DNA of 64,000 nt from a virus. The DNA lies in IMG/VR virus record IMGVR_UViG_3300029337_000249; one strand, given 5' to 3'. Below the pieces are notes generated by a model. That model saw only the letters and a program-made list of their open reading frames with translations. It did no database searches and had not been told where the DNA came from. Positions 4,403 to 48,126 of this stretch are shown piece by piece. Position 1 is the first letter of the stretch. Every line of letters begins with the position of its first letter. Position numbers and translations under genes: made by a program.

Positions 4403-4475
4403 ACATGTTATGCCGCCACGGATTCGGATTCCGGACGGCTGTTTTTATATCAGGAGAGAAGAGGTGAAACCCAGA

Positions 4476-5126
4476 ATGGGGAGAAAGAAAAGCAACGCAC
4501 GGATTCTGCCGCGTGGCAGGAAGATCCATGTGAACAAGTACATCAACAAGCGTGGCTGCACCAAGCATAAAAGCGCCGCCACGCATAACCACAGCACCGA
4601 AAAGCAGCAGGAAAGCAGCCACACAACTTATGACAGCTTCCCCGCTTACAACTGGCCGACGACCAGAATCCCGAAGCAGTATGAGATCTGGTTTGCAGAG
4701 CTTGGTAACCATTATGGCACCTGTGTGCAGAGTGGGAACCGTCCGGTGCTGATCCTGACAAACGATATTGCGAACCGTTATTCGCAGACCTTCACAGTTA
4801 TTCCGCTTACGAGCAAGATGAAAAAGCTCGACCTGCCAACACATATCGTGCTGACAGAAGCACATTGTGAGATGCTCAGAGCGGAACGACTGGAGGATTC
4901 CATTTTGCTGGTCGAGCAGATCACGACGATCGACCAGTCGGCACTGTTTGGACGCCTTTGCAGGGTGATCTCTGCTGAGAAAAAGCAGGAGATTGAACAG
5001 GCTGTGGCAAGGCAGTTTGATATGCACAGTACTAAGAAAAACAAACAAAATACAGACGAAAATGCTGTGCGCGGCAGCAATGCCAATTACGGCAGCAACG
5101 CTGTACACAGCAGGAAGGAGGTCTAA
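4476..5126 (+). CDS. MazF/PemK-like mRNA-interferase domain protein with basic N-terminal and disordered C-terminal extensions; no adjacent antitoxin
   Basis: Core IWFAELGNHYGTCVQSGNRPVLILTNDIANRYSQTFTVIPLTSK...THIVLTEAH fits PemK/MazF (CcdB/MazF fold) family; ATG 4476 with GAGGTGA RBS. Confidence 0.6.
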   Translation: MGRKKSNARILPRGRKIHVNKYINKRGCTKHKSAATHNHSTEKQQESSHTTYDSFPAYNWPTTRIPKQYEIWFAELGNHYGTCVQSGNRPVLILTNDIANRYSQTFTVIPLTSKMKKLDLPTHIVLTEAHCEMLRAERLEDSILLVEQITTIDQSALFGRLCRVISAEKKQEIEQAVARQFDMHSTKKNKQNTDENAVRGSNANYGSNAVHSRKEV

Positions 5127-8049: not shown

Positions 8050-9117
8050 ATGAGTAAGATTATCACCTGTGAACAGGTCAGCAATGGCCATCCTGATAAG
8101 ATCTGTGACCAGATCGCAGATGCTATTGTGACCGACATTCTTCAGCATGACAGGCACGCCCGTGTGGCGATCGAGTGTCTGCTGAAAAAGAGCCAGCTTT
8201 TTATTGCCGGCGAGGTCACCACCGATTACCGGCCAAACTATCAGCAGATCGTCCACGATGTGTTCAATCGCATCGGCGCCGAAAAGCTGGGGTGGAACCT
8301 GACCGAGCTTCTTCGCATCGGCATTCTAGTGGACAAGCAGTCCCCGGACATTGCACTGGGTGTGGACAAGGGCGGTGCCGGTGACCAGGGCATCATGTAT
8401 GGCTACGCCACCAACGAGACAGCAGAGCAGATGCCGATCCCGTACATGGTTGCCACCAAGTTCCTACAGCTGCTGAAGAACCATCCGTCCAAGATGTTCC
8501 GAGCAGATGCCAAGGGGCAGGTCAGCTACGATTACGACACCGGCCGAATCACCACCTTCCTCTGCTCCGTACAGCACAGCCCGGATGTGGAGGTCAGCGA
8601 CTTCAGGCACATCATCGAATCCATGATGGTGCTTGCCGCTTGTGAGTATGGTCTGGACGGTGACTTTACGAAGCTGGTCAATCCGACCGGCCGTTTTGTG
8701 TTGGGAGGCAGCTACGCCGATTGTGGTGTGACCGGCCGGAAGCTGGCGTGCGATACCTACGGCGGCATTGGTCGCATGGGTGGCGGTGCTCTGAGCGGGA
8801 AAGACCCCACGAAGGTGGATCGCTCTGCCGCATACATGGCGAGGAAGATTGCCAAGGACATCGTGCAGGCGGGCTACGCTGACAAGTGTGAAGTCCAGCT
8901 TGCCTACGCCATCGGTGTGGTACAGCCGGTGGGTGTGGCTGTGGAATGCTTCGGTACGGAGCACCAGTCCCTCGACTTCATTGAAGCCTATGTTCATGAC
9001 AGCTACGACCTGACTCCGCAGGGTATCATCAAGCGGCTGGGACTGCTGGATGTAGACTACAACAAGGTCAGTGCCTACGGTCACTTCGGTAAGGCTGGTC
9101 TTCCGTGGGAGGAATAA
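8050..9117 (+). CDS. metK: S-adenosylmethionine synthetase (methionine adenosyltransferase), phage-encoded, compact 355-aa form
   Basis: Hallmark motifs GHPDKICDQI, GAGDQG, GGGALSGKDPTKVDRSAAY; located upstream of three DNA methyltransferases. Confidence 0.92.
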   Translation: MSKIITCEQVSNGHPDKICDQIADAIVTDILQHDRHARVAIECLLKKSQLFIAGEVTTDYRPNYQQIVHDVFNRIGAEKLGWNLTELLRIGILVDKQSPDIALGVDKGGAGDQGIMYGYATNETAEQMPIPYMVATKFLQLLKNHPSKMFRADAKGQVSYDYDTGRITTFLCSVQHSPDVEVSDFRHIIESMMVLAACEYGLDGDFTKLVNPTGRFVLGGSYADCGVTGRKLACDTYGGIGRMGGGALSGKDPTKVDRSAAYMARKIAKDIVQAGYADKCEVQLAYAIGVVQPVGVAVECFGTEHQSLDFIEAYVHDSYDLTPQGIIKRLGLLDVDYNKVSAYGHFGKAGLPWEE

Positions 9118-10899: not shown

Positions 10900-12168
10900 A
10901 TGAAAGCGACTGCTGAACTGAAGATGCTGCCGGTGTCCGTACTTAAGCCGGCCGCATACAATCCCCGGAAAAAGCTGAAGCCGGGGGACAAAGAGTACGA
11001 GAAGATCAAGAACTCCATCACGGAGTTCGGGTTCGCAGATCCTTTGGTGGTCAATGCCGATATGACAATCATCGGCGGCCACCAGAGATTGACCGTAGCG
11101 ATGGAGCTGGGCTATACCGAAGTGCCTTGTGCGGTGGTGGACATCGACAAGACCAGGGAAAAAGCCCTGAACATTGCGCTCAATAAGATCACGGGTGCAT
11201 GGGATGATTCCCTGCTGGCTGATCTTTTGAAGGACATCGAGGATTCTAACTTCGACCTTGGCAAGACCGGCTTTGATCCCCCTGAGATCGAGACGCTGTT
11301 CAACAAGGTCCACAGTAAGGAAGTCAAGGAAGATGACTTCGATGTGGAATCGGAACTGAAGCAACCGTGCTTTTCCAAAGAGGGCGACCTCTGGCATCTG
11401 GGAAAGCACATCGTTCTGTGCGGGGATTCCACCAAAGCAGAATGCTATGACACTCTGATGGATGGCGTGAAAGCCAACCTTGTGCTTTCGGACCCTCCGT
11501 ACAATGTGGACGTGGAAGAAACCGCTGGCAAGATCCTGAACGACAACATGGGCGATTCGGAATTCTACGAGTTTCTGCTGTCGGCATTCAAACAGATGCA
11601 TGACCATCTGGCGGACGATGGCTCCATCTATATCTTTCATGCCGACACCGAAGGATTGAACTTCCGAAAGGCGTTCAAGGATGCCGGGTTCTATCTGTCC
11701 GGGTGCTGTATCTGGAAGAAGAATGCGCTGGTGCTGGGCCGCAGTCCTTACCAGTGGCAGCACGAACCGTGTCTCTACGGCTGGAAGCAGAAGGGGAAGC
11801 ACCAGTGGTATTCCGACCGGAAGCAGACGACCATATGGGAGTATGACCGGCCGAAGTCCAACAAGGACCATCCGACCATGAAGCCCATCGGTCTGATGAG
11901 CTATCCGATTCGCAATTCCACTATGACCAACGGCATCGTGCTTGATCCGTTCCTCGGCAGTGGCTCGACACTGATCGCCTGCGAAGAGACCGACCGTGTG
12001 TGCCGGGGCATCGAGCTAGACCCGAAGTTCGTGGATGTCATCGTGAAGCGGTACATCGAACACAGCGATGGTCACTACGATGATGTGTTTGTTGTCCGTG
12101 ACGGCCAGAAGCTGAAGTTCGAGGAAGTGGCAACCTTCGAGCCGGAAAGCGAGAATGCCGATGCCTGA
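10900..12168 (+). CDS. ParB-like nuclease N-terminal domain fused to N6-adenine/N4-cytosine DNA methyltransferase
   Basis: N-term ParB/Srx block (MTIIGGHQRLTVAMELGYTEVPCAVVD), catalytic DPPY motif (VLSDPPYN) and SAM-binding DPFLGSGST. Confidence 0.9.
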   Translation: MKATAELKMLPVSVLKPAAYNPRKKLKPGDKEYEKIKNSITEFGFADPLVVNADMTIIGGHQRLTVAMELGYTEVPCAVVDIDKTREKALNIALNKITGAWDDSLLADLLKDIEDSNFDLGKTGFDPPEIETLFNKVHSKEVKEDDFDVESELKQPCFSKEGDLWHLGKHIVLCGDSTKAECYDTLMDGVKANLVLSDPPYNVDVEETAGKILNDNMGDSEFYEFLLSAFKQMHDHLADDGSIYIFHADTEGLNFRKAFKDAGFYLSGCCIWKKNALVLGRSPYQWQHEPCLYGWKQKGKHQWYSDRKQTTIWEYDRPKSNKDHPTMKPIGLMSYPIRNSTMTNGIVLDPFLGSGSTLIACEETDRVCRGIELDPKFVDVIVKRYIEHSDGHYDDVFVVRDGQKLKFEEVATFEPESENADA

Positions 12169-12934
12169 TGTGAAATGTGTCCTCATCCACGACAACTTCC
12201 AGAACTTCAAGTCCTATAACATCCCCAAGGCGCAGCTGGTGATCGCAGATATTCCGTACAACATCGGTACAGATTTCTATGCCAGCCGGCCGGATTGGTA
12301 TGTGGATGGCGACAACAAAAACGGGGAGAGCAGCAAGGCGAGGAAGGCGGCGTTCAATACCGACTTCACCTTCAACATTGCAGAGTATTTCCACTTCTGC
12401 AACCGACTGTTGAAGAAAGAACCCGGCACAGGAGAGAAGGATGCACCGTGCATGATCGTGTTCTGCGCGTTCCAGCAGATCCCGAAGGTGATCACAGAAG
12501 CTGAAAAATACGGCTTCAAGAATTATATCCCTCTGGTGTTCTGCAAGAACTACAGTCCGCAGGTGCTCAAAGCCAACATGAAGATCGTGGGTGCAACGGA
12601 GTATGCTCTGGTTCTGTACCGGGGAAAGCTCCCGAAGTTCCGTAATCTCGGTGAGGACGGAAAGCCTCATATGATCTTCAACTGGTTTGACTGGAAGCGG
12701 GATGGCAGGGAATATCCGAAAATCCATCCTTCCCAGAAACCGATCTCCGTGCTGAAACGACTGATCGAGACCTTTACAGATGAGGGCGATGTGGTCATTG
12801 ACCCCTGCGCCGGCAGCGGCTCCACGCTGAGAGCAGCAAGAGAACTGGGGCGCAACAGCTACGGATTTGAAGTATCCAGAGATTTTTACCGGAAAGCAAA
12901 TGAGCAGATGCTCGGAGAGGAGGTCGCCGGATGA
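12155..12934 (+). CDS. DNA methyltransferase (N6A/N4C family, DxPY variant DIPY)
   Basis: ADIPYNIG catalytic motif, HPSQKP, DPCAGSGST SAM-binding motif. Confidence 0.85.
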   Translation: MPMPDVKCVLIHDNFQNFKSYNIPKAQLVIADIPYNIGTDFYASRPDWYVDGDNKNGESSKARKAAFNTDFTFNIAEYFHFCNRLLKKEPGTGEKDAPCMIVFCAFQQIPKVITEAEKYGFKNYIPLVFCKNYSPQVLKANMKIVGATEYALVLYRGKLPKFRNLGEDGKPHMIFNWFDWKRDGREYPKIHPSQKPISVLKRLIETFTDEGDVVIDPCAGSGSTLRAARELGRNSYGFEVSRDFYRKANEQMLGEEVAG

Positions 12935-15162
12935 GCACAGAACAGAATAAGACTTTGACCCTCGGCAGCCTCTTTGATGGCTCCGGGGGTTTTCCATTGG
13001 GCGGTCTGTTGACCGGGCAGATCACTCCGGTGTGGAGCAGCGAGATCGAGCCGTTTGCCATCCGGGTCACGACGAAGCGTCTGCCGCAGGTGAAACACTA
13101 CGGAGATGTGTCTGCCATCAGTGGAGCAGACCTGCCGCCCGTGGACATTATCACCTTTGGCAGTCCCTGTCAGGATATGTCCATCGCTGGTAAGCGGGAC
13201 GGTCTGGATGGTTCACGGTCCAGTCTGTTTTACGAAGCAATCCGAATCGTGAAGGAAATGAGGTGCAAGACCAATGGAGAAAAACCAAGATTTATCGTGT
13301 GGGAGAATGTGCCAGGGGCCTTCTCTTCAAACAAGGGACAGGACTTCAAAGCAGTCCTCGAAGCCGTCATCGGTGTTAAAGAACCGGCCGCCTCGGTGCC
13401 TGCGCCTGAGAAGAAAGGATGGCCCGACGCTGACTACTACGTGGGAGACGGATGGAGCGTCGCGTATCGAGTTCTTGATGCACAATGGTGGGGCGTTCCC
13501 CAAAGAAGAAAACGTATCTACCTTGTCGCAGATTTTGCAGACCAGAGTGCCCCAAAGGTACTATTTGAGTCCGAAGGCGTGTCTCGGTATTCTGCGGAGA
13601 GCTTCCGTGCGTGGCAAAGAGCTGCCGCCTGTGCTGAAAGAAGCATTGGAGAGACAGGCTGCGGAAACGGAAGAATCGTCTTGAATGATCAGGGTGGAGC
13701 ACAGATGGATGTATCCCATGAAGTGACCGGGACGCTCCGGGCAGAGGATCATGGGCATCCACCCTGCGTTATGGAGGCGGCAGGCTTCTGCACTGAACAC
13801 TCCGCCAATGCCAGAAGCATCGGGTACGAGGAAGAACGCTCACCGACACTCCGGGCCGGTGTGGTTCCGGCCGCCATTGCACTGGAAAATCATCCTGCGG
13901 ACAGCCGGGTGAAGATTTCCGAGGATGGCAAGGTGCAGACGCTGACCAGCCGGTGCGGTACAGGCGGCGGCAATGTTCCGCTGGTCATGGGAGTTGAAAA
14001 CTCTGTGGAAAGCCCGGTGAAAGATGTTGAAAACTCCCCGGCGGTCACACTGAAGATCCGCTCTGGATGTGATGGAGGCGGAAAGGGCGCGATCTGGCAA
14101 GAGGAAAAATCGGCAACTCTGGGCTGCAACAATGACCAGACGCTGTTCGTTCCGAAAGCCTACGGTGTCTGTTCCAAGGCAAGCCACTCCATGATGAGTG
14201 ACAATCCGCACAGCGGTTTCTATGAAGCCAGCACCTCTCGGACACTCGACCGCAGCGGTGGTGACCCGACCTGCAATCAGGGAGGGCTGTGCATCTGTGA
14301 ACCTGTTGTCTGCGTGGATCAGGGTGGCGGAAAGTCGAACTGCACGGTGGACGAACAGGTGGCACCGCCTTTGTCCTGTACCCACGGCGGCGCACCGGCA
14401 GTGGCTTTTACCCAGAATCAGCGGGATGAAGTCCGGGATCTGGGAGATAAGTCAGCAGCACTGGCAGCAGAGCCGGGGATGAAGCAGCAGACCTTCGTGG
14501 CACAGCCGGAAGATGTGACCGCATTCCACGTAAATCAGCGCAATGAGCTGATCGACCTGCATGGAAAGTCCGGCGCACTCATGGCGACCCGGAGCGACCA
14601 GATGCAGACCTTTGTGCTGCAGGGCAACATGATCGGCCGCAAGGACGAGAACGGCCCGCAGGGGGATGGGGTCAATGAGGATGTCTGCTTCACGCTGGAT
14701 GCCACTGACCGCCATGCAGTCTGTGTCCCGGAAAGCGTCTATGCCATGACTACCGGCTCCTATATGCAGGTGGAGAAAGAGGTTGCGCCGACCTTGATGG
14801 CACGGGACTACAAAGACCCGACCACCATTGCACCGGTGCCGCAGGATGTCAGCTACACAGTCCGCCGACTGACACCAATCGAATGCGCCCGGTTGCAGGG
14901 CTTTCCGGACTGGTGGTGCAGTGACCTCGGCGCGGAGAATCCGACCGATGAAGAGCTGGCATTCTGGGCAGATGTGTTTGAAACACACCGCAGGATCGTG
15001 ACGCAGGCGAAGAAACCAAAGACAGAGAAACAGATCCGCAAATGGCTGGCTGACCCGTATTCGGATGCGGCAGAGTACAAACTCTGGGGCAACGGCGTGG
15101 CACTGCCCTGTGTTTACTTCGTTCTGGCCGGCATCGCATGGTACGCAGGTCTGGAAGAATAA
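12931..15162 (+). CDS. DNA (cytosine-5)-methyltransferase, unusually long (743 aa) with large repetitive variable region
   Basis: Motif I FDGSGG, motif IV GSPCQDMS, motif VI ENV, QRRKR, C-terminal RRLTPIECARLQGFPDWW; ~430-aa insert containing many T-L dipeptide segments and an internal tandem repeat (AFTQNQRDEVRDLGDKSAAL / AFHVNQRNELIDLHGKSGAL). Confidence 0.9.
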   Translation: MSTEQNKTLTLGSLFDGSGGFPLGGLLTGQITPVWSSEIEPFAIRVTTKRLPQVKHYGDVSAISGADLPPVDIITFGSPCQDMSIAGKRDGLDGSRSSLFYEAIRIVKEMRCKTNGEKPRFIVWENVPGAFSSNKGQDFKAVLEAVIGVKEPAASVPAPEKKGWPDADYYVGDGWSVAYRVLDAQWWGVPQRRKRIYLVADFADQSAPKVLFESEGVSRYSAESFRAWQRAAACAERSIGETGCGNGRIVLNDQGGAQMDVSHEVTGTLRAEDHGHPPCVMEAAGFCTEHSANARSIGYEEERSPTLRAGVVPAAIALENHPADSRVKISEDGKVQTLTSRCGTGGGNVPLVMGVENSVESPVKDVENSPAVTLKIRSGCDGGGKGAIWQEEKSATLGCNNDQTLFVPKAYGVCSKASHSMMSDNPHSGFYEASTSRTLDRSGGDPTCNQGGLCICEPVVCVDQGGGKSNCTVDEQVAPPLSCTHGGAPAVAFTQNQRDEVRDLGDKSAALAAEPGMKQQTFVAQPEDVTAFHVNQRNELIDLHGKSGALMATRSDQMQTFVLQGNMIGRKDENGPQGDGVNEDVCFTLDATDRHAVCVPESVYAMTTGSYMQVEKEVAPTLMARDYKDPTTIAPVPQDVSYTVRRLTPIECARLQGFPDWWCSDLGAENPTDEELAFWADVFETHRRIVTQAKKPKTEKQIRKWLADPYSDAAEYKLWGNGVALPCVYFVLAGIAWYAGLEE

Positions 15163-15294
15163 ACTGGCCCGCTATATTACTAGGTAGAAAGCGACCTGGT
15201 GATATGGTGGGCTTACATATTGGTCCTATTTACACAACAGATTTTGCGGTCCCTTGTGTAAATGGTCGAACATGAAGAATATCGCGAAATGGCC

Positions 15295-15323
15295 TTGCTA
15301 TTCATCCATTTTAGAGTGATATA
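15295..15323 (+). promoter_or_regulatory. variant copy of repeated promoter cassette (-35 TTGCTA, 17-nt spacer, -10 GATATA) preceded by inverted repeat ATTTACACAA-N16-TTGTGTAAAT (15232-15267)
   Basis: Shares GGCCTTGCTAT...CTACCGAAAAG context with other cassette copies; upstream of acidic protein gene. Confidence 0.45.
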
Positions 15324-15385
15324 TGTGCTACCGAAAAGAACATCGGGATGCACAAAAACAAATGAACGAAAAGGAGCGATGAATT

Positions 15386-16558
15386 ATGTTGAAATTTAAA
15401 CTGAACGTAGCCGAGAGAAAGACCCTCGCAAAACGCATGGAGGAGCTGACCGGCATCCACCCTTACTATACCAAAGCACCTCTGTATTCTTACGACATCG
15501 GGAGCTACACCATCGACCGGAATGGCAACCTTCTGGTCGAGCCGGAGAATGCAGATGCCGAGCTGCTGACGACCCTGCTGAATGAGGGACTGATCCGCGG
15601 CGGCGAGAGTATTGAGAGCACGGATGACCAGCCGGAGGACACAGAGCTGACAGCGGATATGGATGAGGAGCCTGTGACCGAAGCGGAAACTGAGCAGATG
15701 CCCGAAGCAGAGCTGGAGGTTCTGGACGAGCAGGAATCCGAAGATGCAAGTACCGCAGAAGCCGAATCCGAGGATGCATTGGAGCCGGATAATGCGGCAG
15801 AGGATGAGCCGGATGCAGAGGGGCCGGAAAGCGAGGAGCAATCAGAAGCAGAAGACCAGCCGGAAGAGGTGCCGCTGGACTTGGAACTTGCATTCCCGGT
15901 CAGCCAGCACAACGGTGTGACTCTCCGCAACCTGGTCAACCTTCTTTACAGCCGCGGCAAGCTCATCGGCAAGGCGACTGGCGGAAACTTCCATGTGGAA
16001 GAGGGACTGGTGGAGAAGCTGAAAGACGATAGCTGCACCTTTGCCATCATGAACTTCATCAACGCGGTAAGCGACTATGAGGTTGAGCATGGTGCTGCAC
16101 TGGAAGGCCTGAAGATTACCACCGAGAAGGTCACCTTCACCGGCTTCCCGACCGCACCGGACCACGAACACCTGACGGCTTTTGCACAGCTGGCGGTGCT
16201 GATGAACCAGCAGGCGATCAGCCAGAAGCGTATCCAGGCAAAGGATGTCAACGATGAGAATGAGAAATACGCACTCCGCACATGGCTCCTGCGGCTGGGG
16301 ATGAACGGTCCGGACTTCAAAGAAACACGCAAGATCCTCATGGAGAATCTTTCCGGCCATGCGGCTTTCCGCACGGATGAGGAAGCACAGAAGTTCCTCG
16401 CAAGGGAAAAGGCAAAACGGGATGCCCTGAAAGCCGCGAAACAGGCGGCACAGGAGGGCAGTGCCTCCGCAGGGGAAACGATCGCATCAGCAGATGCCGA
16501 GCCGACACAGCCCGACTGTGGGGCAGACACGGCGCAGATGCTGGAGGCGGGAGCGTAA
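15386..16558 (+). CDS. acidic protein: N-terminal ~70-aa domain, ~110-aa D/E-rich disordered linker, C-terminal domain homologous to the C-terminal half of the adjacent amidoligase (lacks catalytic N-terminal motifs)
   Basis: AAGGAG RBS; C-terminal TLRNLVNLLYSRGKLIGKA..KVTFTGF..AFAQLAVLMNQ..KYALRTWLLRLG aligns with amidoligase TIRNLVNIMAAHEQQIGRA..TIEFRLF..AYIQLCLAMSQ..KYAMRCWMLRLG. Confidence 0.65.
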   Translation: MLKFKLNVAERKTLAKRMEELTGIHPYYTKAPLYSYDIGSYTIDRNGNLLVEPENADAELLTTLLNEGLIRGGESIESTDDQPEDTELTADMDEEPVTEAETEQMPEAELEVLDEQESEDASTAEAESEDALEPDNAAEDEPDAEGPESEEQSEAEDQPEEVPLDLELAFPVSQHNGVTLRNLVNLLYSRGKLIGKATGGNFHVEEGLVEKLKDDSCTFAIMNFINAVSDYEVEHGAALEGLKITTEKVTFTGFPTAPDHEHLTAFAQLAVLMNQQAISQKRIQAKDVNDENEKYALRTWLLRLGMNGPDFKETRKILMENLSGHAAFRTDEEAQKFLAREKAKRDALKAAKQAAQEGSASAGETIASADAEPTQPDCGADTAQMLEAGA

Positions 16559-16714
16559 GCTCCCAAGCTCCCAATGGGGGACGGAAAATATGCGAGACCC
16601 TCTTTCATTGTAACGATATTAACTCTGAAAATGTACATTATCAAGCGGATAAACTGCAGAAATGTACACGATCATTCCTCTCGATATTTGTCGAATATAT
16701 GTTCTTTTATGGCC

Positions 16715-16743
16715 TTGCTATTATGTGCACCTGACGGTAATAT
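16715..16743 (+). promoter_or_regulatory. repeated promoter cassette copy (-35 TTGCTA 16715-20, 17-nt spacer, -10 TAATAT 16738-43) driving amidoligase gene
   Basis: Consensus-like sigma-70 spacing; conserved flanks GGCCTTGCTAT and CACATACCGAAAGGGA shared with 7 other copies; two AAATGTACA half-sites upstream (16631-16675). Confidence 0.55.
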
Positions 16744-16790
16744 GCACATACCGAAAGGGAAAACAAGGAAAAAACAAAGGAGAACATACC

Positions 16791-17729
16791 ATGAACGATA
16801 AAACAAGAGAGCAGATTGAAGCCATGAAGAACCAGACCATCGGAGTTGAGATCGAGATGAACAACATCACCAGAGAAAAAGCGGCAAGAAAGGTCGCGGA
16901 GTACTTCGGAACCAGAGCATGGAACGCCGCCGGCGAGTACGGATATTACAGCTGGGCTTGCAAGGACCAGCAGGGCAGGGTTTGGAAATTCCAGAGGGAT
17001 GTGAGCATCTACGGACCGGACGCAGAAAAATGCGAACTGGTCACCCCGATCCTCACCTACGACGACATCGAAACCTTGCAGGAGATTATCCGGCTGCTCC
17101 GAAAGGCAGGCGCAAAGAGCGGCCCAAGCCGCGGATGCGGAGTCCACATCCACATCGGCAAAGGGGACCACACCGCAAAGACCATCCGCAACCTTGTGAA
17201 CATCATGGCGGCACACGAACAGCAGATCGGCAGAGCCATCCGGATTGACGCAGGGCGCACCGGACAATATTGCCAGGTGGTCAATCACCGCTTCCTCGAC
17301 CGGCTGAACCGTGAGAAGCCGACCACCATGCGCAAGCTGGAAGACATCTGGTACGAAGGCAACGGTTCCAGCTGGGAAAACCGGAATGCCCACTACAATT
17401 CAAGCCGGTACCATATGCTGAACCTCCATGCCACCTTCACGAAAGGGACCATTGAATTCCGCCTTTTCCAATTCGCAGACCCAGCGGACGGAAAGCGCAA
17501 CGGACTGCACGCCGGTGAGATGAAAGCCTACATCCAGCTTTGCCTCGCAATGAGCCAGCTTGCCAAGATGGTCAGAACGGCAAGCCCGAAGCCCCAGCAG
17601 ACCGACAACGAAAAGTACGCCATGCGGTGCTGGATGCTGAGGCTGGGATTCATCGGGGATGAATTTGCAACGGCAAGGGAGATCCTTCTGCGGAACATGG
17701 AGGGCAACGCATCCTGGCGGAACAAATAA
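16791..17729 (+). CDS. amidoligase (Amidoligase_2 / GCS2-glutamine-synthetase-like carboxylate-amine ligase family)
   Basis: N-terminal GVEIEMN and HIHIG motifs, ELRLF-like TIEFRLF block typical of phage/Firmicutes putative amidoligase family; neighbourhood with AIG2/GGCT genes as described for this family. Confidence 0.8.
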   Translation: MNDKTREQIEAMKNQTIGVEIEMNNITREKAARKVAEYFGTRAWNAAGEYGYYSWACKDQQGRVWKFQRDVSIYGPDAEKCELVTPILTYDDIETLQEIIRLLRKAGAKSGPSRGCGVHIHIGKGDHTAKTIRNLVNIMAAHEQQIGRAIRIDAGRTGQYCQVVNHRFLDRLNREKPTTMRKLEDIWYEGNGSSWENRNAHYNSSRYHMLNLHATFTKGTIEFRLFQFADPADGKRNGLHAGEMKAYIQLCLAMSQLAKMVRTASPKPQQTDNEKYAMRCWMLRLGFIGDEFATAREILLRNMEGNASWRNK

Positions 17730-17796
17730 GCCGGGATGCACGGGCACCTTTTGGGCGGGCAACCGCCCTTGAGGTGGTAGAAGGAGGTGCAGGTTT

Positions 17797-18033
17797 ATGA
17801 AAAGCACGTTAAAAAATGAAAACACACCGGGCGGCAGAGCCTTTAAGGTGACCATCACCGAGACCTACCAGAGGACGGTGACCATTTATGAATCCGAGAT
17901 GAAAGAGCCGACCGTGGAGGAAGCCCAGCGTGTGGCAGAGGACTGGTGGCGGGACAGCCAGATCGAGCTTGGGAAAGAGGATTTCCAGGGCGTGGAGTTC
18001 ACTGGCAGGGAGGACGGTGAGGCAGATGTTTGA
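17797..18033 (+). CDS. small protein (78 aa) between amidoligase and GGCT genes; possible substrate/partner
   Basis: AGGAGG RBS (17776-17786); stop overlaps next ATG; no domain. Confidence 0.5.
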   Translation: MKSTLKNENTPGGRAFKVTITETYQRTVTIYESEMKEPTVEEAQRVAEDWWRDSQIELGKEDFQGVEFTGREDGEADV

Positions 18034-18547
18034 ACTGATCAGCCGAAACCCATCCAGATATTATCTTGCCTACGGAAGCAACCTCGACATGGAACGGATG
18101 GGAAAGAGATGCCCTTACGCTGTGGTGGTCGGCACGACCGAGATCATGGGCTACCGGCTCCTGTTCAAAAAGAGTAAGACCGGCTGCTATGCCACCATCG
18201 AGCAGGATGCCAATGAAAGCGTACCGGCGGTGGTCTGGAAGCTCTCGGAATACGATGAGCTCCTGCTGGACCGATACGAAGGCTGCCCAAGATACTATTA
18301 TAAGAAGCAGTTCCAGCTTCCGGTCTGGAACCTGAACGGGAACCGCATGAAAAAGGCAAAGCCCTGCATCGCTTATGTGATGCACGAGGATCGGAGGCTT
18401 GGCTGCCCGGATGCCGAGTATTTTGAACTGCTGCGTGGCGGATACAGCGACTGGGAATTTCCGCTGGACACACTGAAGCGTGGACTGGCAGCCAGCATCG
18501 GAAGGGCGGAAGCCATCCGGTATCTGAAGAAGCGGCAGATGATGTAA
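18026..18547 (+). CDS. gamma-glutamyl cyclotransferase-like (AIG2/GGCT family) protein 1
   Basis: Signature YLAYGSNL near N-terminus and conserved catalytic Glu context (VWKLSEYDELLLDRYEG). Confidence 0.8.
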   Translation: MFELISRNPSRYYLAYGSNLDMERMGKRCPYAVVVGTTEIMGYRLLFKKSKTGCYATIEQDANESVPAVVWKLSEYDELLLDRYEGCPRYYYKKQFQLPVWNLNGNRMKKAKPCIAYVMHEDRRLGCPDAEYFELLRGGYSDWEFPLDTLKRGLAASIGRAEAIRYLKKRQMM

Positions 18548-18677
18548 GAGTACACGATCACAGGGAAAAAACATTGTGCAGTATATGATGCTCATCGGCC
18601 TTGATAAATCAGGGCAAAAGAGTGATATATACCATACCGCCAGACAAGAGCGGAGAAAACCGAAGGGAGAGATTCAA

Positions 18678-19157
18678 ATGAAGAACAAGAAATATTACAT
18701 CGCCTACGGCAGCAACCTGTCGGTGGAGCAGATGGCAGACCGATGCCCGGATGCAAAAATTGCAGGGCAGGCGGTGCTGGCCGGCTGGGAGCTTTTGTTC
18801 CGCGGCTGCGCCACCATCGCACCGAACCCGAAGAAGAACACGCCGGTTCTGGTGTGGGAGATCTCGGAAAGGGACGAAGGAAACCTCGACCTCTATGAGG
18901 GCTACCCGAACTACTACCGCAAGGAAGATCTGAACATTGAACTGCTCCGGGAAGGGGCAGAGCCGGAGATGGTGACCGCAATGGTCTACATCATGGAGAA
19001 CGACTTCGGGCACCGCGCACCGAGCCGGTATTACTACAAAGTTCTGCATGACGGCTACAAGGCATTCCACTTCCCGATGCACATCCTCGAAGGTGCGCTG
19101 AAGGAATGCATGGATAAGGATGCCGCCCAGAAGATGATCGGGGAGGTGCAGTCATGA
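18678..19157 (+). CDS. gamma-glutamyl cyclotransferase-like (AIG2/GGCT family) protein 2
   Basis: YIAYGSNL signature, VWEISERDEGNLDLYEG; paralog of previous gene; AGGGAGA RBS. Confidence 0.8.
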   Translation: MKNKKYYIAYGSNLSVEQMADRCPDAKIAGQAVLAGWELLFRGCATIAPNPKKNTPVLVWEISERDEGNLDLYEGYPNYYRKEDLNIELLREGAEPEMVTAMVYIMENDFGHRAPSRYYYKVLHDGYKAFHFPMHILEGALKECMDKDAAQKMIGEVQS

Positions 19158-19621
19158 ATTTCGCAGATCAGAAAATGGTCGAGAAGTTGAGAAAAGAGTT
19201 CCCGGTCGGATGTCGGATCGTCCTCGATGAGATGGATGACAGGCAGGCACTGCCCATCGGAACGCAGGGGACCTGCAACGGGGTCGATGATGCCGGAAAC
19301 ATCTTAGTGAGCTGGGACACCGGAAGCCATCTGAACGTTGCCTACGGTGCGGACAGTTGCCACCGTGTGGCTTCGGAAGTTGAGGTCAAGGTGTCGCTCG
19401 ACCGCCTTGGTAAAACGCGACAGACCGGTCCACGTTGCCCCAGGTGCGGAGCAAAGCCAGACTGCTACGACCATCAGCAGCAGGCACTCAGCCGAAGGGC
19501 GGACATCCAGATCTGTAACCGATGCGGAACGGAGGAAGCGTTAGAGGACATTGCATGGGGCGGACACCAAAACCTGCCTTTGGCAGACTGGGCAATCGTG
19601 AAAGGGGGCTGGGTCGAATGA
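19154..19621 (+). CDS. DUF4314 domain protein with C-terminal zinc ribbon
   Basis: VGCRIVLDEMDDRQALPIGTQGTCNGVDDAGNILVSWDTGSHLNV matches DUF4314; CPRCG...CNRCG ribbon. Confidence 0.7.
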   Translation: MNFADQKMVEKLRKEFPVGCRIVLDEMDDRQALPIGTQGTCNGVDDAGNILVSWDTGSHLNVAYGADSCHRVASEVEVKVSLDRLGKTRQTGPRCPRCGAKPDCYDHQQQALSRRADIQICNRCGTEEALEDIAWGGHQNLPLADWAIVKGGWVE

Positions 19622-19989
19622 AGGTCCTTCTGATCAAACCGATGGAACATCCGCAGGTGGTGGACATCGAAAACTCCCTGCAAGAGTTCTACCGCATCCT
19701 CGACTGCGACTGCATCACAGCCACATACCCGTGGGAAGAATGCGCTGCCCTGGTTACTGATGACAACGGGCTGTTCACCGAGAAGCCATTCAGCAGATAC
19801 ATCCCGGAGCTGGAGCAGCCCATCAAGGGAAACTTCTTCATTTGCGGATTGGGCGAGGAAGATTTCGCAGAGCTGCCCCAAGATCTGATTCAGAGATTCA
19901 GGGAACGCTTCTGGGTGCCGGAGGCATTTGTCAGCATGTTCGGGCAGATGGCAGTCATCCAGATGGATGACGGAACGAAGCCGGAATAA
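19618..19989 (+). CDS. DUF3846 domain protein
   Basis: MKVLLIKPMEHPQVVDIENSLQEFYRIL... matches DUF3846 N-terminus; ATGA overlap with previous gene. Confidence 0.65.
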   Translation: MKVLLIKPMEHPQVVDIENSLQEFYRILDCDCITATYPWEECAALVTDDNGLFTEKPFSRYIPELEQPIKGNFFICGLGEEDFAELPQDLIQRFRERFWVPEAFVSMFGQMAVIQMDDGTKPE

Positions 19990-20060: not shown

Positions 20061-20252
20061 ATGGGACACAGAAAGATGCCTGCTTATGGCGAGAGGGAAC
20101 ACGGCGGCAGATACATTCTGGATGAATACGAATGGTCGAGAAATCACTGCAAGGCGGTGACCATCCGCAGATGGAAAAGAGACCTGAAAAAGAAAGCCAG
20201 GGCGCATAACCGCAGGGTGATGCATCAGGCAATGCAGGGCGAAGCCGATTAG
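20061..20252 (+). CDS. hypothetical small basic protein (63 aa)
   Basis: AGGAGGAG RBS 6 nt upstream of ATG. Confidence 0.45.
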   Translation: MGHRKMPAYGEREHGGRYILDEYEWSRNHCKAVTIRRWKRDLKKKARAHNRRVMHQAMQGEAD

Positions 20253-20451: not shown

Positions 20452-20703
20452 TTAGAAGAAATCCCTCATGCTCATGCCGACCTCGTTCAGTCGTTCCTCC
20501 ATGCAGTGGTAGTGCCAATCCTCTTCCTCTTCTTTGTCTTCTTCCTCAAGCTCCTCTGGAAAAGGGTCGTGCCGCCAGCCGGCTTTCTGGTATTCTTCTT
20601 CCCGGATGTCGTTGCGGTCGTAAATGTCCAGCTCGTATTCTTCTTCAAGCTCTGCGATGCGGTTTTCGATTGCGGCTTCAACTTCTGTAATGGTCTTTTT
20701 CAT
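20452..20703 (-). CDS. small acidic protein (84 aa), only minus-strand gene in this block
   Basis: Minus-strand ATG at 20703 with GGAGGA RBS (rc of 20710-20716); sequence MKKTITEVEAAIENRIAELEEEYELDIYD...EEEDKEEEEDWHYHC. Confidence 0.55.
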   Translation of the reverse strand: MKKTITEVEAAIENRIAELEEEYELDIYDRNDIREEEYQKAGWRHDPFPEELEEEDKEEEEDWHYHCMEERLNEVGMSMRDFF

Positions 20704-23195: not shown

Positions 23196-23480
23196 ATGAA
23201 AAAGCATTTGATCGACTTTCCAGAAAACAACATCAGCATTGAGAGTTTCTACGACCGACTCAGACCTTGCTACGACAGCATCATGCAGTTCGGTGACCGG
23301 GTTTTGGTTGCCCAGATGAACTGGAACGGCATGCTGGAGGGAGCGGTATACGGATTTGTGGAAGACCCAGAGGAAGGCTGGTCACCGATTGAGTGCCGAC
23401 TGGAGCTTCTGAAGATTTCCGATGAGATCTACACGGATGCCGGTCACGCGATCGAGTGGTGCATCAGGAACGCACACTGA
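23196..23480 (+). CDS. hypothetical protein (94 aa)
   Basis: GGAGGATTTTACC RBS. Confidence 0.5.
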   Translation: MKKHLIDFPENNISIESFYDRLRPCYDSIMQFGDRVLVAQMNWNGMLEGAVYGFVEDPEEGWSPIECRLELLKISDEIYTDAGHAIEWCIRNAH

Positions 23481-32200: not shown

Positions 32201-33028
32201 ATGAAGAAGATTTTTCCTTTGTTCGCAGTGATCATCGTTCTGGTGCTGGCTATCTGTTCGTTCCACATCATTCCCACCGGCTACACCGGCGTGAAGACCA
32301 GCTTTGGTCAGATCCAGGAGACCACCATCCAGAGCGGCAAGCTCAACTTCTGCATTCCTTTTGTGCAGAGCATCCATAAGGTCAACAACAAGCAGCAGGA
32401 TAAGCATATCGAGGCGCAGGTCTGGGGCGAAGCCTCCGACAAGACTCCTGTGTATGCCGCTGATGTCATCGTGACCTATCAGGTGCTTCCTGAAAAGAGC
32501 GCATGGCTGTATGCGAATGTGTCCGACATCAAGAATCTGGTCGGTGATGAGTTGGTGGCATCGGCAATCAAGTCTGCGATGGCAGAACTTGGTCCCAATG
32601 AGGTAACCAACCGTACCAAGATCGAGCCTCTGGCACAGCAGAAGCTGGCAGAGTCCCTTGTGCAGAAATATGGTGAGGACGTTGTGTTCGTAAACAAGGT
32701 CGTCGTCAACGACATGAATTTCGAGGATGCCTATAACGAAGCCATCCAGCAGAAGTCCATTGCACAGCAGAATGCAGATAAGCAGAAGATCGAGAATGAA
32801 GCCGCCATTGCCAAGGCAGAAGCGGATAAGCAGGTGGCGATCACCAATGCAGAGGCGGAAGCCCAGAAAACTTCCATTGCCGCAGATGCACAGGCAGAGG
32901 CAAACCGCAAACTGGCAGAAAGCCTGTCCGATACGCTGATCGATTACCAGAAGGTTCAGAAGTGGGATGGAAAGCTGCCCACTGTGAGCGGCGGTAATGC
33001 ACTGGTCAGCATTGACCCGGCAGAGTAA
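32201..33028 (+). CDS. SPFH/band-7 (prohibitin/HflC-like) membrane protein, moron inside tail module
   Basis: N-terminal TM segment (IFPLFAVIIVLVLAICSF) then SPFH domain (GYTGVKTSFGQIQ...VVVNDMNFEDAY) and C-terminal AEA/Q coiled coil. Confidence 0.85.
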   Translation: MKKIFPLFAVIIVLVLAICSFHIIPTGYTGVKTSFGQIQETTIQSGKLNFCIPFVQSIHKVNNKQQDKHIEAQVWGEASDKTPVYAADVIVTYQVLPEKSAWLYANVSDIKNLVGDELVASAIKSAMAELGPNEVTNRTKIEPLAQQKLAESLVQKYGEDVVFVNKVVVNDMNFEDAYNEAIQQKSIAQQNADKQKIENEAAIAKAEADKQVAITNAEAEAQKTSIAADAQAEANRKLAESLSDTLIDYQKVQKWDGKLPTVSGGNALVSIDPAE

Positions 33029-33094
33029 GAAACACGATATACGGCAGGGCTTCGGCTCTGCCAATTTTACATGAAATTTTGGAGGATTACGATT

Positions 33095-33475
33095 ATGGCA
33101 GTTACAAAGAAAATTGAGATCGATGGCAAGGAAGTCACCTTTAAGGCAAGTGCCGCCGTGCCGCGTCTGTACCGCATCAAGTTCGGCCGTGACATTTACA
33201 AAGACCTGCGCCAGCTGGAAAAGAGCGTGGGAGAGAACGATGAGGACAATTCCAACCTCGACCTGTTCAGTCTGGAAATGTTCGAGGACCTGGCATGGCT
33301 GATGGCCCGTCATGCAGACCCGGCAAAGGTGCCGGACAGCCCGGAGGAGTTCCTGGACCAGTTCAACACCTTCTCCATTTATCAGATCCTGCCCCAGCTG
33401 ATCGAACTGTGGGGTCTGAATGTGCAGACCGAGGTGGAATCCAGAAAAAACCTCGCAAAAGTGAGCGGGAAATGA
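33095..33475 (+). CDS. tail assembly chaperone (G-like), 0-frame product
   Basis: Position before tape measure; slippery A_AAA_AAC at 33445-33451 near 3' end. Confidence 0.75.
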   Translation: MAVTKKIEIDGKEVTFKASAAVPRLYRIKFGRDIYKDLRQLEKSVGENDEDNSNLDLFSLEMFEDLAWLMARHADPAKVPDSPEEFLDQFNTFSIYQILPQLIELWGLNVQTEVESRKNLAKVSGK

Positions 33476-33636
33476 CCACCCCGCTCTTTCTGCTGCGCTG
33501 TGTACAGCTCGGTATCAGCATCGCCGACCTCGACCTGCTGACCATCGGGTTGGTCAATGATATGTTCACGGAACGACAGAACGACGACTATCCGTACAAA
33601 GAGCTGGCCTCGCAAGCTGATTTTGACAAATTTTGA
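33095..33636 (+). CDS. tail assembly chaperone -1 frameshift extension product (GT-like)
   Basis: -1 shift at A_AAA_AAC continues ...KKPRKSEREMTTPLFLLRCVQLGISIADLDLLTIGLVNDMF... to stop 33634-33636. Confidence 0.6.
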
Positions 33637-33700
33637 CAGAATAAAACTCGACGAGCGTGCATATATTAAATGTGAAATAAGCACGCTCGTTTGATTTTAC

Positions 33701-33729
33701 TTGACTACCGTGCTTATTTCGATTACAAT
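33701..33729 (+). promoter_or_regulatory. abiE promoter (-35 TTGACT, 17 nt, -10 TACAAT) embedded in operator repeats (IR ACGAGCGTGC 33651-60 / GCACGCTCGT 33681-90; three AAATAAGCACG half-sites)
   Basis: Consensus-like promoter immediately upstream of AbiEi gene with inverted repeats as expected for autoregulating AbiEi. Confidence 0.55.
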
Positions 33730-33754
33730 ATAAGCACGGAAGGATGGTGATTCT

Positions 33755-34339
33755 ATGAATGAGATGACAAGATTAGTTCAAAATCATGATTACCTTACGC
33801 CGAGAATCGCGGGAAAATCTGGAATTTCAAAATTTAAATTTTACAAATATGTTCGAGAAAACGGATTGGAGCCGGTCAGCCGTGGTGTGTATTCTACGGG
33901 ATCGGATTGGGTCGATGAGTTATATGTGCTTCATAAGAGATGCCCGAATGCTGTTTTTTCACATGATGAGGCCTTTTATTATCATGGTCTGACAGACAGA
34001 GAACCGTTTGTCCACACACTTACCATATACAGCGGTTACAATGCGCATCGACTTATAGCGGATGGAAGTTGTAAAGTATATACGGTAAAACGGGAATTAC
34101 TGGATGTCGGAAAGATCATTGTGAAAGACAACGATGGGAACATGATTCCAATGTATGACTTGGAACGAACGATTTGTGATCTGATGAGAAGCCGGAGCAG
34201 TATTGAAGCACAGGATTTCAATTCCGTTCTGAAGACATATGTTTCCAGAAGAAACAAGGACCTAAATCGACTCATGGAATATGCAAAGCTGTTTCGGGTT
34301 GATAATGTGATCCGCAGATATATGGGGGTATTATTGTAA
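33755..34339 (+). CDS. abiEi: AbiEi antitoxin (type IV TA / abortive infection), transcriptional autorepressor
   Basis: AbiEi_4-type N-terminal wHTH and C-terminal domain; low-GC island; followed by AbiEii gene 2 nt downstream. Confidence 0.8.
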   Translation: MNEMTRLVQNHDYLTPRIAGKSGISKFKFYKYVRENGLEPVSRGVYSTGSDWVDELYVLHKRCPNAVFSHDEAFYYHGLTDREPFVHTLTIYSGYNAHRLIADGSCKVYTVKRELLDVGKIIVKDNDGNMIPMYDLERTICDLMRSRSSIEAQDFNSVLKTYVSRRNKDLNRLMEYAKLFRVDNVIRRYMGVLL

Positions 34340-34340
34340 A

Positions 34341-35180
34341 ATGCAGCTGACACCAGAACAGGTTAAGGGAAGAATTAAGAATGTGGCAAAGGAAAACAAG
34401 GCAGATGCCAGAACGCTCATGCGGATCTATATGATGGAGCGTTTCCTTGAGAGAGTTGCCAGTTCGCAGTACAAAGATAATTTTATCATTAAAGGCGGAA
34501 TGCTGGTGACAGCGATGGTTGGCGTAGCATTGCGGTCCACGATGGATATCGATACGAGCATTAAAAATCAGAATCTGTCGGCAGAAGATGCAAAACGGAT
34601 TGTGGATGAAGTCAAGGATATCAATCTTGGGGATGGAGTGACCTTTGAGGTTAAGGAAGTTTCCAATATCATGGATGAGATGGAGTATCCGGGTATTCGA
34701 TTTACCATGAATGCTGTGATGGGAAAACTCGTTACACCGATGAAGATTGATATATCTACAGGAGATGTTATCACGCCAAGAGCAATCGAGTACAACTATA
34801 AATTGCTCATGGATGACCGTTCCATCAGCCTTTGGTCGTATAATTTGGAAACAATTCTGGCAGAAAAACTTCAGACGGTCCTTGCAAGAGGTCTTTTGAA
34901 TACCCGAATGAGAGACTTCTATGACATCAAGACCCTGCTTTCTATTTACGAGCAGGACATCGATGCTGATGTGCTGAAAAAGGCATTTGAGGCAACCTGT
35001 AAGAAAAGAAGCACCGAAAATCTGAAAGAGGAAGCACCTAAAATTATGGCTGCCGTCAGTGATGACGCACAGTTACATACACTTTGGAAGTCCTACCAGA
35101 AGAAATATCCGTATGCGGCTGATATCAGCTATGAGGATATTATGGAGAGCACAATGCTCTTATGGAGTAAAATTCAATAA
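34341..35180 (+). CDS. abiEii: AbiEii toxin (nucleotidyltransferase, DUF1814 family)
   Basis: Pol-beta-like NTase signature GGMLVTAMVGVALRSTMDIDT and C-terminal AbiEii/AbiGii family blocks. Confidence 0.85.
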   Translation: MQLTPEQVKGRIKNVAKENKADARTLMRIYMMERFLERVASSQYKDNFIIKGGMLVTAMVGVALRSTMDIDTSIKNQNLSAEDAKRIVDEVKDINLGDGVTFEVKEVSNIMDEMEYPGIRFTMNAVMGKLVTPMKIDISTGDVITPRAIEYNYKLLMDDRSISLWSYNLETILAEKLQTVLARGLLNTRMRDFYDIKTLLSIYEQDIDADVLKKAFEATCKKRSTENLKEEAPKIMAAVSDDAQLHTLWKSYQKKYPYAADISYEDIMESTMLLWSKIQ

Positions 35181-44634: not shown

Positions 44635-44656
44635 TGCAGCTGGGAAAGGGGAAAAT

Positions 44657-48026: not shown

Positions 48027-48126
48027 TACTATGTAACCCTTGATTTCCCCAAGACAGGACCTCCCAATCTGCTGGATAAACCGATAGTAGTTGTAGCCGG
48101 AATTGTCTGGCAGAAGGGAGAATCCT

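Follow-up and report, generated by a model that had tools for sequence, protein, structure and literature searches.

The locus described here raises the question of what a phage may do with a ligase of the Amidoligase_2 family that is encoded next to two γ-glutamyl cyclotransferase (GGCT)-like proteins and to a second, strongly acidic ligase-like protein. It lies in a 64,000-nt stretch of virus DNA (IMG/VR record IMGVR_UViG_3300029337_000249, hereafter the window, to which all positions refer), which covers most of a temperate siphovirus-type phage of gut Clostridia (Lachnospiraceae, Oscillospiraceae). An earlier note on this DNA had described a block of seven co-oriented genes, and we found all seven on the plus strand between 15386 and 19989, with an eighth (20061-20252) joining the same unit. 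Our preferred but tentative answer is that the block is an early-type accessory cassette, in which the ligase would make a γ-glutamyl amide and the cyclotransferases would cyclise the glutamyl group off, while the acidic protein, a catalytically dead paralog of the ligase, would act separately as a binder.

An intact ligase and a full-length, catalytically dead paralog

The gene at 16791-17729 (+) encodes a basic protein of 312 amino acids (aa; pI 9.35, net charge +11). A Pfam search placed it, as the earlier note had proposed, in Amidoligase_2 (PF12224) with E=2.6e-55 and 188.4 bits (cut-off 22), over profile positions 1-244 of 245. The active-site set GxExE, ExVxP, HxH, RY and ExR is present, and E20, E22, E82, H119, H121, R206, Y207, E222 and R224 show no variation when 22 or 30 ligase sequences are aligned; the same residues are intact in every full-length ligase among 57 aligned, and the ligases keep all of them whether or not they are linked to a GGCT. 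The structural model has a glutamine-synthetase-like fold, and its matches include glutamate-cysteine ligases (13.1-12.3), Dop and PafA (11.1 and 10.5), YbdK, as well as glutamine synthetases and γ-glutamylmethylamide and naphthylamine synthetases (10.9-8.9). We thus predict an intact, ATP-dependent carboxylate-amine ligase of the glutamine-synthetase fold. The characterised enzymes among its structural neighbours activate the γ-carboxylate of a glutamate. The cassette is extremely common in the gut viromes of humans and animals, and the exact ligase sequence was found on at least 1000 contigs. NCBI records give the name 'alpha-L-fucosidase' to close homologues of the ligase, in its 90%-identity cluster and among 65%-identical relatives (e.g., RHP01745.1 and a protein of Drancourtella sp. 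An57), which is an evident mis-annotation.

The gene at 15386-16558 (+) encodes a protein of 390 aa with a pI of 4.3 and a net charge of -50, which the earlier note took for a truncated ligase fused to an acidic protein, with homology to the ligase confined to the C-terminal ~170 aa. The homology was reproduced by BLASTP, which aligned aa 263-329 with ligase residues 244-310 (40% identity, E=3e-14, 67 residues only). It does not stop there, since hhalign, run on two independent pairs of alignments, matched aa 3-5 to 331 with ligase residues 20-22 to 312 (Prob 99.7-99.9, E 6e-26 to 1e-34), so that the homologous part extends over aa 5-331 (ligase 22-312). The protein is thus neither truncated nor fused: it corresponds to the ligase over its full length, with substitutions and, as an insertion, an acidic loop of 87 aa. 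It matched no Pfam family at E<=0.01, and an NCBIfam scan gave no match for it or for any other of the seven cassette proteins; in PHROGs, both ligase-like genes were assigned to phrog_2443, annotated 'amidoligase' (9e-40 for the acidic protein).

The view that this protein is a pseudo-enzyme was borne out at every catalytic position. Relative to the ligase, E20 and E22 (GVEIE) are replaced by K3 and K5, E82 (CELVTP) by L49, H119 and H121 (VHIHIG) by E167 and A169, and E222 and R224 (IEFRLF) by T250 and T252. Across 89 members of its family, the corresponding columns hold K/T/R/N (E20), K/E/R/N (E22), S/T/E/N (H119), S/A/T (H121), T/I/S/V (E222) and T/D/S (R224), and L/V/I/M in every sequence at E82. 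Judged from these alignments, the acidic protein is a full-length ligase paralog that is predicted to be catalytically dead, with all metal-binding and catalytic residues lost.

Its fold appears to be kept. The AlphaFold2 model has a pLDDT >95 in both lobes and comprises an N-terminal lobe (aa 1-75, in which the N-terminal strand-helix is retained but degenerate), the acidic loop (aa ~76-162), a C-terminal lobe (aa 163-330) and a long helix (aa 331-362), and its best viral structural matches are mostly phage amidoligases. The loop (15611-15871, +; 46% D/E, net charge -40) is inserted where ligase helix 90-105 joins the HxH strand and is disordered in the model (pLDDT 45-59), with no secondary structure. 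Among 108 full-length family representatives, its length varies from 0 to 283 aa (median 59; 34% D/E, 2% K/R); several members are nearly loopless (0-17 residues; e.g., linkers of 2, 4 and 6 residues) and some loops are not acidic. Because several members have essentially no loop, we regard the loop as accessory and the folded lobes as the conserved core. The D/E loop as a conserved functional core was ruled out on the same ground, its absence from some members.

Two motifs are shared by the paralog and the ligase, namely H-T-x-x-S/T-L-R-N-L-V-N after the former HxH strand and, at the C-terminus, N-E-K-Y-A-x-R-x-W-L-x-R-L-G-x-x-G-x-E-F/Y-K-x-x-R...G-x-x-A-F-R. Their high conservation despite a non-catalytic nature makes it most likely that the dead paralog binds something that the ligase binds. 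The opposite charges of the two proteins (-50 and +11) are compatible with an interaction between them, without demonstrating one.

The family is large. A search of 1.84 billion representatives returned 2332 clusters (at 50% identity) with E<=1e-3, of which 224 had E<=1e-30; the weaker tail, beyond the best 150 of the 2332, probably includes true ligases that match through the shared C-terminal motifs. The 120 closest relatives have no Pfam domain and are all named 'hypothetical protein', and the only domain fusion among the long members was a probable gene-call fusion to a serine recombinase, which is uninformative. In the literature searched, there was no description of the second 'amidoligase' as catalytically dead, of its acidic loop or of a methyltransferase/DUF4314 linkage. 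A large orphan family, whose members are labelled hypothetical or mislabelled, can be recognised as an inactivated amidoligase with a hypervariable acidic loop. The loops of some other members (P0140, P0146, P0161, P0168 and locus L055 4630-5811) carry the aromatic-acidic motifs PD.EYEQE..EE.AASLG[IV]RD, LGTE[ED]W and EVWQPETDIF, the last of which resembles SSB C-terminal tips; the loop of 15386-16558 has none of them.

The cyclotransferases adjoin the ligase, and the dead paralog goes with the methyltransferases

The two GGCT-fold paralogs, GGCT1 (18026-18547, +; 173 aa, pI 9.1) and GGCT2 (18678-19157, +; 159 aa, pI 5.4), carry the YGSNL signature and a catalytic glutamate (Glu85 and Glu74, respectively). 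Both scored above the Pfam GGACT/AIG2 (PF06094) cut-off of 22.8 bits (35.7 bits, 1.5e-8 for GGCT1; 44.6 bits, 2.6e-11 for GGCT2) and belong to PHROG 2520 (3e-36 and 2e-41), and GGCT2 additionally matched AIG2_2 (1.4e-6). That they are paralogs, as had been noted, was confirmed by a 34% identity (E=7e-31). The motif residues of GGCT1 are invariant in 93 of 94 sequences, the remaining one having an alignment gap; in GGCT2, Glu74 is invariant in 94/94 sequences and YGSNL is nearly so. Sequence searches of the PDB with the ligase, GGCT2 and both family profiles gave human GGCT as the sole match, for GGCT2 (2pn7, E=2e-4), with YGSNL in register and LDLYEG aligned to LDEQEG. We predict that both are intact GGCT-fold enzymes. 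GGCT needs a free α-amino group on the glutamyl moiety, and the substrates of the known GGCT and GGACT enzymes are free small molecules rather than residues bound in proteins.

Gene order was compared in ~230 related loci: 80 viral loci found via the ligase (61-100% identity; set 1), 80 bacterial-genome loci found via the dead-paralog profile (set 2) and 79 further viral loci found via the ligase profile (set 3). Informative for the GGCT were 74 loci in each of sets 1 and 3, and for the paralog 53 genome loci. A GGCT lies <=1.5 kb downstream of the ligase in 74/74 loci of set 1 and 73/74 of set 3, where in the lone exception the GGCTs are immediately upstream; hence, a GGCT adjoins the ligase in 148/148 phage loci, and both GGCT paralogs are present in 58/74 loci of set 1. 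In the genome set, ligase and GGCT occur together in 29 loci and a GGCT without a ligase in none. The earlier statement that amidoligase and AIG2/GGCT genes form a recurrent neighbourhood is thus upheld, and the pairing is also known from LUZ24-type phages.

The dead paralog behaves differently. Among the 53 genome loci, a ligase is present in 35 (66%) and absent from the entire locus in 18 (34%), while DUF4314 lies just downstream of the paralog in 43 (81%) and a DNA methyltransferase directly upstream in 45/52 (87%). Conversely, the paralog is missing from 8/75 ligase loci of set 1 and 15/66 of set 3. The dead paralog therefore tracks DNA methyltransferases and DUF4314 more closely than it tracks the ligase, and the synteny rule that emerges makes the GGCT dependent on the ligase and groups the dead paralog with the methyltransferases and DUF4314. 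This tighter link suggests a role of the paralog in the same counter-restriction or early-takeover neighbourhood. The earlier note had proposed the D/E-rich protein as a possible substrate of the ligase; its D/E-rich stretch is an unlikely one, since the stretch shrinks to 0-6 residues in some members and the protein occurs without a ligase in 18/53 genome loci.

The most frequent order, found in 27 loci, is ParB-methyltransferase, Dcm, dead paralog, DUF4314, ligase, GGCT and DUF4314, and the order in the window, with DpnD and two GGCTs, is one variant of this commonest architecture. Dcm precedes the ligase in 53/66 loci. The fetched flanks (5-6 kb) contained TerL in 114 related loci and MetK in only 22; the position of TerL implies that the cassette usually stands at the end of the early/replication region, just before packaging.

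The remaining genes of the unit encode a DpnD/PcfM-like acidic protein of 78 aa (17797-18033, +; PF14207, 5e-7), a DUF4314 protein with a C-terminal CxxC...CxxC zinc-ribbon-like tail (19154-19621, +; Pfam 9e-27; PHROGs 3782, 2431 and 2945), a DUF3846 protein (19618-19989, +; Pfam 2.4e-23) and, as the last co-oriented gene, a basic protein of 63 aa (20061-20252, +; pI 10.3), which had no Pfam match and whose gene is kept after DUF3846 in close relatives. The end of the DpnD gene, with its stop codon, and the start of GGCT1 share 8 nt, and the GGCT2/DUF4314 and DUF4314/DUF3846 junctions are ATGA overlaps, a spacing that points to translational coupling. The block has two real intergenic gaps, of 232 nt and 130 nt, the latter preceding GGCT2. 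Convergent on the ligase operon is a gene for a very acidic protein of 83 aa (20452-20703, minus strand), which has a GGAGG ribosome-binding site (RBS) and no Pfam match and is the only clear minus-strand gene noticed within the region examined.

Repeated putative promoter cassettes split the block

A putative promoter cassette occurs in seven copies in the window, with the -35 element at 15295, 16716, 20854, 21171, 21842, 22462 and 23111. Its consensus is TTG(C/A)TA-N17-(T/G)A(A/T)AT(A/T), followed by a leader ...TACCGAAAG(G)GAAAAC and GGAGG, and every copy lies 35-60 nt upstream of a start codon; this repetition and position point to promoter function. Since Rfam gave nothing at the gathering score in the whole window, the repeat is not a known RNA. 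Copy 1 (15295-15336, +; TTGCTA-N17-GATATA, leader ..TACCGAAA) precedes the dead paralog and copy 2 (16716-16757, +; TTGCTA-N17-TAATAT, leader ..TACCGAAAGGGAAAAC, RBS AAAGGAG) the ligase operon, and a weaker look-alike with three mismatches to the pattern (18601-18642, +) lies in the 130-nt gap before GGCT2. The block would therefore consist of two, possibly three, transcription units. The earlier note had placed two copies at the flanks of the block and proposed independent regulation; the promoter look-alikes are indeed there, but both lie inside its 5′ part and split it, rather than one standing on each side. Each of the seven promoter-plus-leader copies, ~100 nt long, appears to drive a short gene or operon within the accessory region at 15-24 kb, which suggests a single regulon of early or accessory genes.

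Operator-like sites of the type TTTACA/TGTAAA had been reported upstream of both copies. Upstream of copy 1, we found a perfect 10-bp inverted repeat, ATTTACACAA-N16-TTGTGTAAAT (15228-15263; 100% complementary), which is a candidate operator. The candidate upstream of copy 2 (16618-16674) is of another kind, consisting of two 26-nt direct repeats that each contain the palindrome TGTACA. ATGTACA is mildly enriched in the window (12 seen, 4.4 expected).

A possible γ-glutamyl cycle and competing explanations

Of the interpretations in the earlier note, make-and-break chemistry remains the best reading, with the acidic stretch as its substrate disfavoured. In our preferred version, the promoter at 16716 would drive an operon of ligase, DpnD/PcfM, GGCT1, GGCT2, DUF4314, DUF3846 and the 63-aa protein. 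By analogy with its structural neighbours, the ligase would phosphorylate the γ-carboxylate of free glutamate and join it to an amine X, giving γ-Glu-X, and the two GGCTs would then use the free α-amine of the glutamyl moiety to form 5-oxoproline and release X. The outcome could be a transient γ-glutamyl handle, put on X and then removed like a protecting or solubilising group, or else the ATP-driven conversion of glutamate to 5-oxoproline, as in the opening half of the γ-glutamyl cycle, where glutamate-cysteine ligase and GGCT would do the same if glutathione synthetase were missing. The dead paralog, under its own promoter at 15295, would have kept the fold and would bind, without catalysis, a partner or ligand like that of the ligase; it would act mainly alongside the DNA methyltransferases and DUF4314 and not as an obligate ligase subunit, its hypervariable acidic loop being accessory.

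Such ligase-GGCT pairs need not be futile. In butirosin biosynthesis, BtrJ installs a γ-glutamyl protecting group and the GGCT-fold enzyme BtrG removes it, so that ATP-dependent γ-glutamylation is likewise followed by GGCT-type cyclo-elimination; BtrJ, however, is an ATP-grasp and not a glutamine-synthetase-fold enzyme, and it works in a large biosynthetic cluster with intervening steps, of which none is visible here. The γ-glutamyl cycle (glutamate-cysteine ligase/YbdK-type GCS2 plus GGCT) differs from the cassette in that sequence identity is just 8-13%, the ligase here is much smaller (312 aa), and glutathione synthetase, γ-glutamyl transpeptidase and 5-oxoprolinase are not present.

Several observations weigh against this reading. 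If ligase and cyclotransferase both act on one bond, they would form a futile cycle unless a step intervenes, for which the cassette holds no obvious candidate, and the presence of two GGCT paralogs is left unexplained. Glutamate as the acyl donor is an analogy, as we know of no biochemistry for any Amidoligase_2 member and the PDB searches with the ligase, GGCT2 and both family profiles returned no Amidoligase_2 structure. The residues that the paralog has in common with the ligase may have a structural role only. Early expression is suggested solely by the promoter look-alikes, and a generic sigma-70 scan showed no enrichment (7 sites, 5.5 expected). A PADLOC scan assigned none of the seven cassette proteins to a defence-system family. 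The coupling of the two enzymes also has exceptions, since six loci of the genome set have a ligase but no GGCT <=3.5 kb from the paralog. One is locus L100, where no GGCT was detected after the ligase; the others (L129-L131, L145 and L149) hold a clade of shorter (~290 aa) intact ligases, which lie directly after the dead paralog and before DUF4314 and have no GGCT in the fetched locus (>5 kb downstream).

The closest described system is found in LUZ24-type Pseudomonas phages, where Amidoligase_2 lies beside AIG2/GGCT together with ATP-grasp, class-II amidotransferase (GAT-II) and COOH-NH2 ligase genes (gene table in PMC3890496). It is part of a 'putative peptidoglycan modification module' of LUZ24-, PaP3- and phiEco32-type phages (Iyer et al. 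2009, as cited in PMC11318856), whose peptidoglycan role is given as a prediction in the discussion of PMC11945000. The idea is repeated for the Clostridium clostridioforme LM41 prophages phi13-alpha and phi13-epsilon, which have two PHROG 2443 genes and one PHROG 2520 gene and are annotated only as 'host metabolism, phage defence' (PMC11318856); their gene set is the same cassette. Like the LUZ24/PaP3/phiEco32 module, the cassette in the window is a phage early-region combination of PF12224 Amidoligase_2 and PF06094 AIG2/GGCT with an only predicted function. In contrast to it, there are two enzyme types only, ATP-grasp, GAT-II and PF14395 COOH-NH2 ligase being absent from the 48 window open reading frames (ORFs) scanned against Pfam; there are two GGCT genes; the block additionally encodes a dead amidoligase paralog, DpnD/PcfM, DUF4314 and DUF3846; and the whole lies inside a DNA-methyltransferase block of temperate Clostridia phages. 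As three of the five components are absent, the cassette is not a strict member of the LUZ24-type module, and since the amidoligase-GGCT pairing was described there, we see it as a reduced Clostridia-phage variant combined with an undescribed pseudo-enzyme family.

The predicted peptidoglycan role could be carried over to this variant, with the ligase adding an unusual amide to the stem peptide of a peptidoglycan precursor, which would block superinfection or prime lysis. Stem peptides do contain γ-linked D-glutamate, but its α-amine is blocked by L-Ala, so that a GGCT could not cyclise it, and the cassette lies beside DNA methyltransferases and away from the lysis genes at 51-53.6 kb; with three module components missing and a basis that is itself a prediction, we consider a cell-wall role improbable. 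We give slightly less credence to a protein switch in which the ligase would mark lysines of host or phage proteins by γ-glutamylation (possibly on DpnD/PcfM, DUF4314, DUF3846 or a defence protein), the GGCTs would erase the marks and the dead paralog would be an adaptor. The substrate range of the known GGCT and GGACT enzymes speaks against it, and DpnD is absent from most distant cassettes (6/74). A tagging system would recall pupylation, in which the ligase PafA and the deamidase/depupylase Dop are adjacent glutamine-synthetase-fold paralogs. Both of these are catalytic, whereas one paralog here is dead, and there is neither a proteasome partner nor a Pup-like tag: none of the co-encoded small proteins is a small disordered protein ending in Gly-Gly-Glu/Gln (DpnD ends in ...GEADV and the 63-aa protein in ...QGEAD; the acidic protein ends in ...LEAGA). 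Removal would have to be via GGCT, and because GGCT requires a free α-amine on the glutamyl moiety, a Pup-like tag is disfavoured.

The genomic neighbourhood invites two further explanations. In one, the ligase would amidate a carboxyl-bearing DNA base, nucleotide or S-adenosylmethionine (SAM) derivative, which a GGCT would deprotect as in BtrJ/BtrG. In its favour are the basic ligase (pI 9.35), the presence of a methyltransferase immediately before the dead paralog in 45/52 loci and of Dcm before the ligase in 53/66, and the window's genes for MetK (8050-9117) and for an Nmad4 protein (23196-23480) with counterparts in 69 related loci. However, no hydroxymethylase, TET/JBP, base kinase or glycosyltransferase was found among the window ORFs scanned, MetK is within the flanks of 22 loci only, orphan multispecific methyltransferases and MetK are explained by ordinary anti-restriction, and the synteny may reflect only a shared accessory-gene hotspot just upstream of the terminase; such a modification pathway thus seems as improbable as the protein switch. 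The other explanation, unlikely but the one among these rivals to which we give most weight, is that the acidic dead paralog is a stand-alone anti-restriction decoy that mimics DNA or an SSB tail and that adjoins the ligase only because of a gene duplication. It would fit a net charge of -50 and a loop with 46% D/E, the position directly after methyltransferases in 87% of loci, the own promoter, the 34% of loci that are ligase-free, and the SSB-tail-like aromatic-acidic motifs (...ETDIF) in the loops of other members. Like Ocr and ArdA, the paralog is a strongly negative phage protein in an anti-restriction neighbourhood; unlike these folded, DNA-shaped mimics, it carries its charge in a disordered loop of a dead enzyme. 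That loop is reduced to 0-17 residues in several members, is sometimes not acidic and has no aromatic motif in 15386-16558, the conserved parts being the two folded lobes, and the acidic protein matched neither Ocr nor ArdA by sequence or by Pfam profile.

An anti-defence role of the cassette as a whole is plausible. In the literature searched, no paper connected an amidoligase to anti-defence, DUF4314 and DUF3846 were essentially unmentioned, and a paper on polyvalent proteins did not contain these domains. A bolder version of our preferred reading has the dead amidoligase as the founder of an undescribed and very abundant pseudo-enzyme family. It would have kept the ligase's pocket for a ligand or partner and would serve as a sponge or decoy for a glutamate-derived or amine-bearing molecule or for a host protein that detects phage DNA. 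It would act in counter-defence together with the orphan methyltransferases and DUF4314, while the ligase-GGCT pair would be a converter or tagging switch that rewires host metabolism early. We regard this combination as quite unlikely, between the decoy and the cell-wall role. The enzyme pair nonetheless recurs in very different phages and offers a precise chemical hypothesis; should it burn glutamate and ATP or tag proteins, temperate gut phages would be manipulating their hosts in a new way.

Phage setting and neighbouring genes

Upstream of the cassette, a Pfam scan identified an SNF2 helicase and a D5-type primase, followed by MetK, a ParB-N6/N4 methyltransferase (10900-12168), a second N6/N4 methyltransferase (12155-12934) and Dcm (12931-15162; 743 aa). 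This Dcm-type C5 methyltransferase has a long insert of ~450 aa between its conserved halves, with the internal repeats QNQRDEVRDLGDKSAAL... and VNQRNELIDLHGKSGAL..., and resembles a phage methyltransferase of the multispecific kind, with several target-recognition domains. The cassette is followed downstream by genes for TerS, TerL, portal, ClpP-type protease, capsid and tail, by the lysis genes and by three large serine recombinases, in agreement with the phage origin that had been assumed. The matches to DpnD/PcfM, DUF4314 and DUF3846 had prompted the alternative of a conjugative element, which is excluded because a terminase, portal, capsid and tail module follows the cassette and TerL is within the fetched flanks in 114 related loci.

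The genomes of Blautia faecis, Faecalibacterium intestinale and Clostridium fessum contain near-identical copies, and many other Lachnospiraceae and Oscillospiraceae contain more distant ones. A search of a phage collection gave a single match, the unannotated record MT836278 (82% identity), and a search of a plasmid collection gave none.

Some further genes of the window were noticed. The Nmad4 protein at 23196-23480 has 94 aa and the "nucleotide modification associated domain 4" (PF18756, 1.3e-19); its gene has its own promoter-cassette copy, and its homologues lie near the cassette in the 69 related loci mentioned above. In the replication region, 4410-5126 encodes a PemK/MazF-like toxin domain (aa 89-203, 1.3e-20) behind a basic N-terminal extension of 88 aa. 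The tail module contains moron-like genes (32201-35180): one encodes an SPFH/Band-7 protein (32201-33028), and another, for an AbiEii nucleotidyltransferase toxin (34341-35180; 6e-41), is preceded by the gene of its likely AbiEi partner (33755-34339). The large serine recombinases are at 53817-56177, 56212-58512 and 60941-62782, the last two being separated by an AAA_25/KaiC-like ATPase (59950-60930). Finally, two large proteins of the tail-fibre region (44621-47962 and 48103-50409) each have a terminal GDSL/SGNH esterase domain, and these domains are possibly receptor-deacetylating enzymes.

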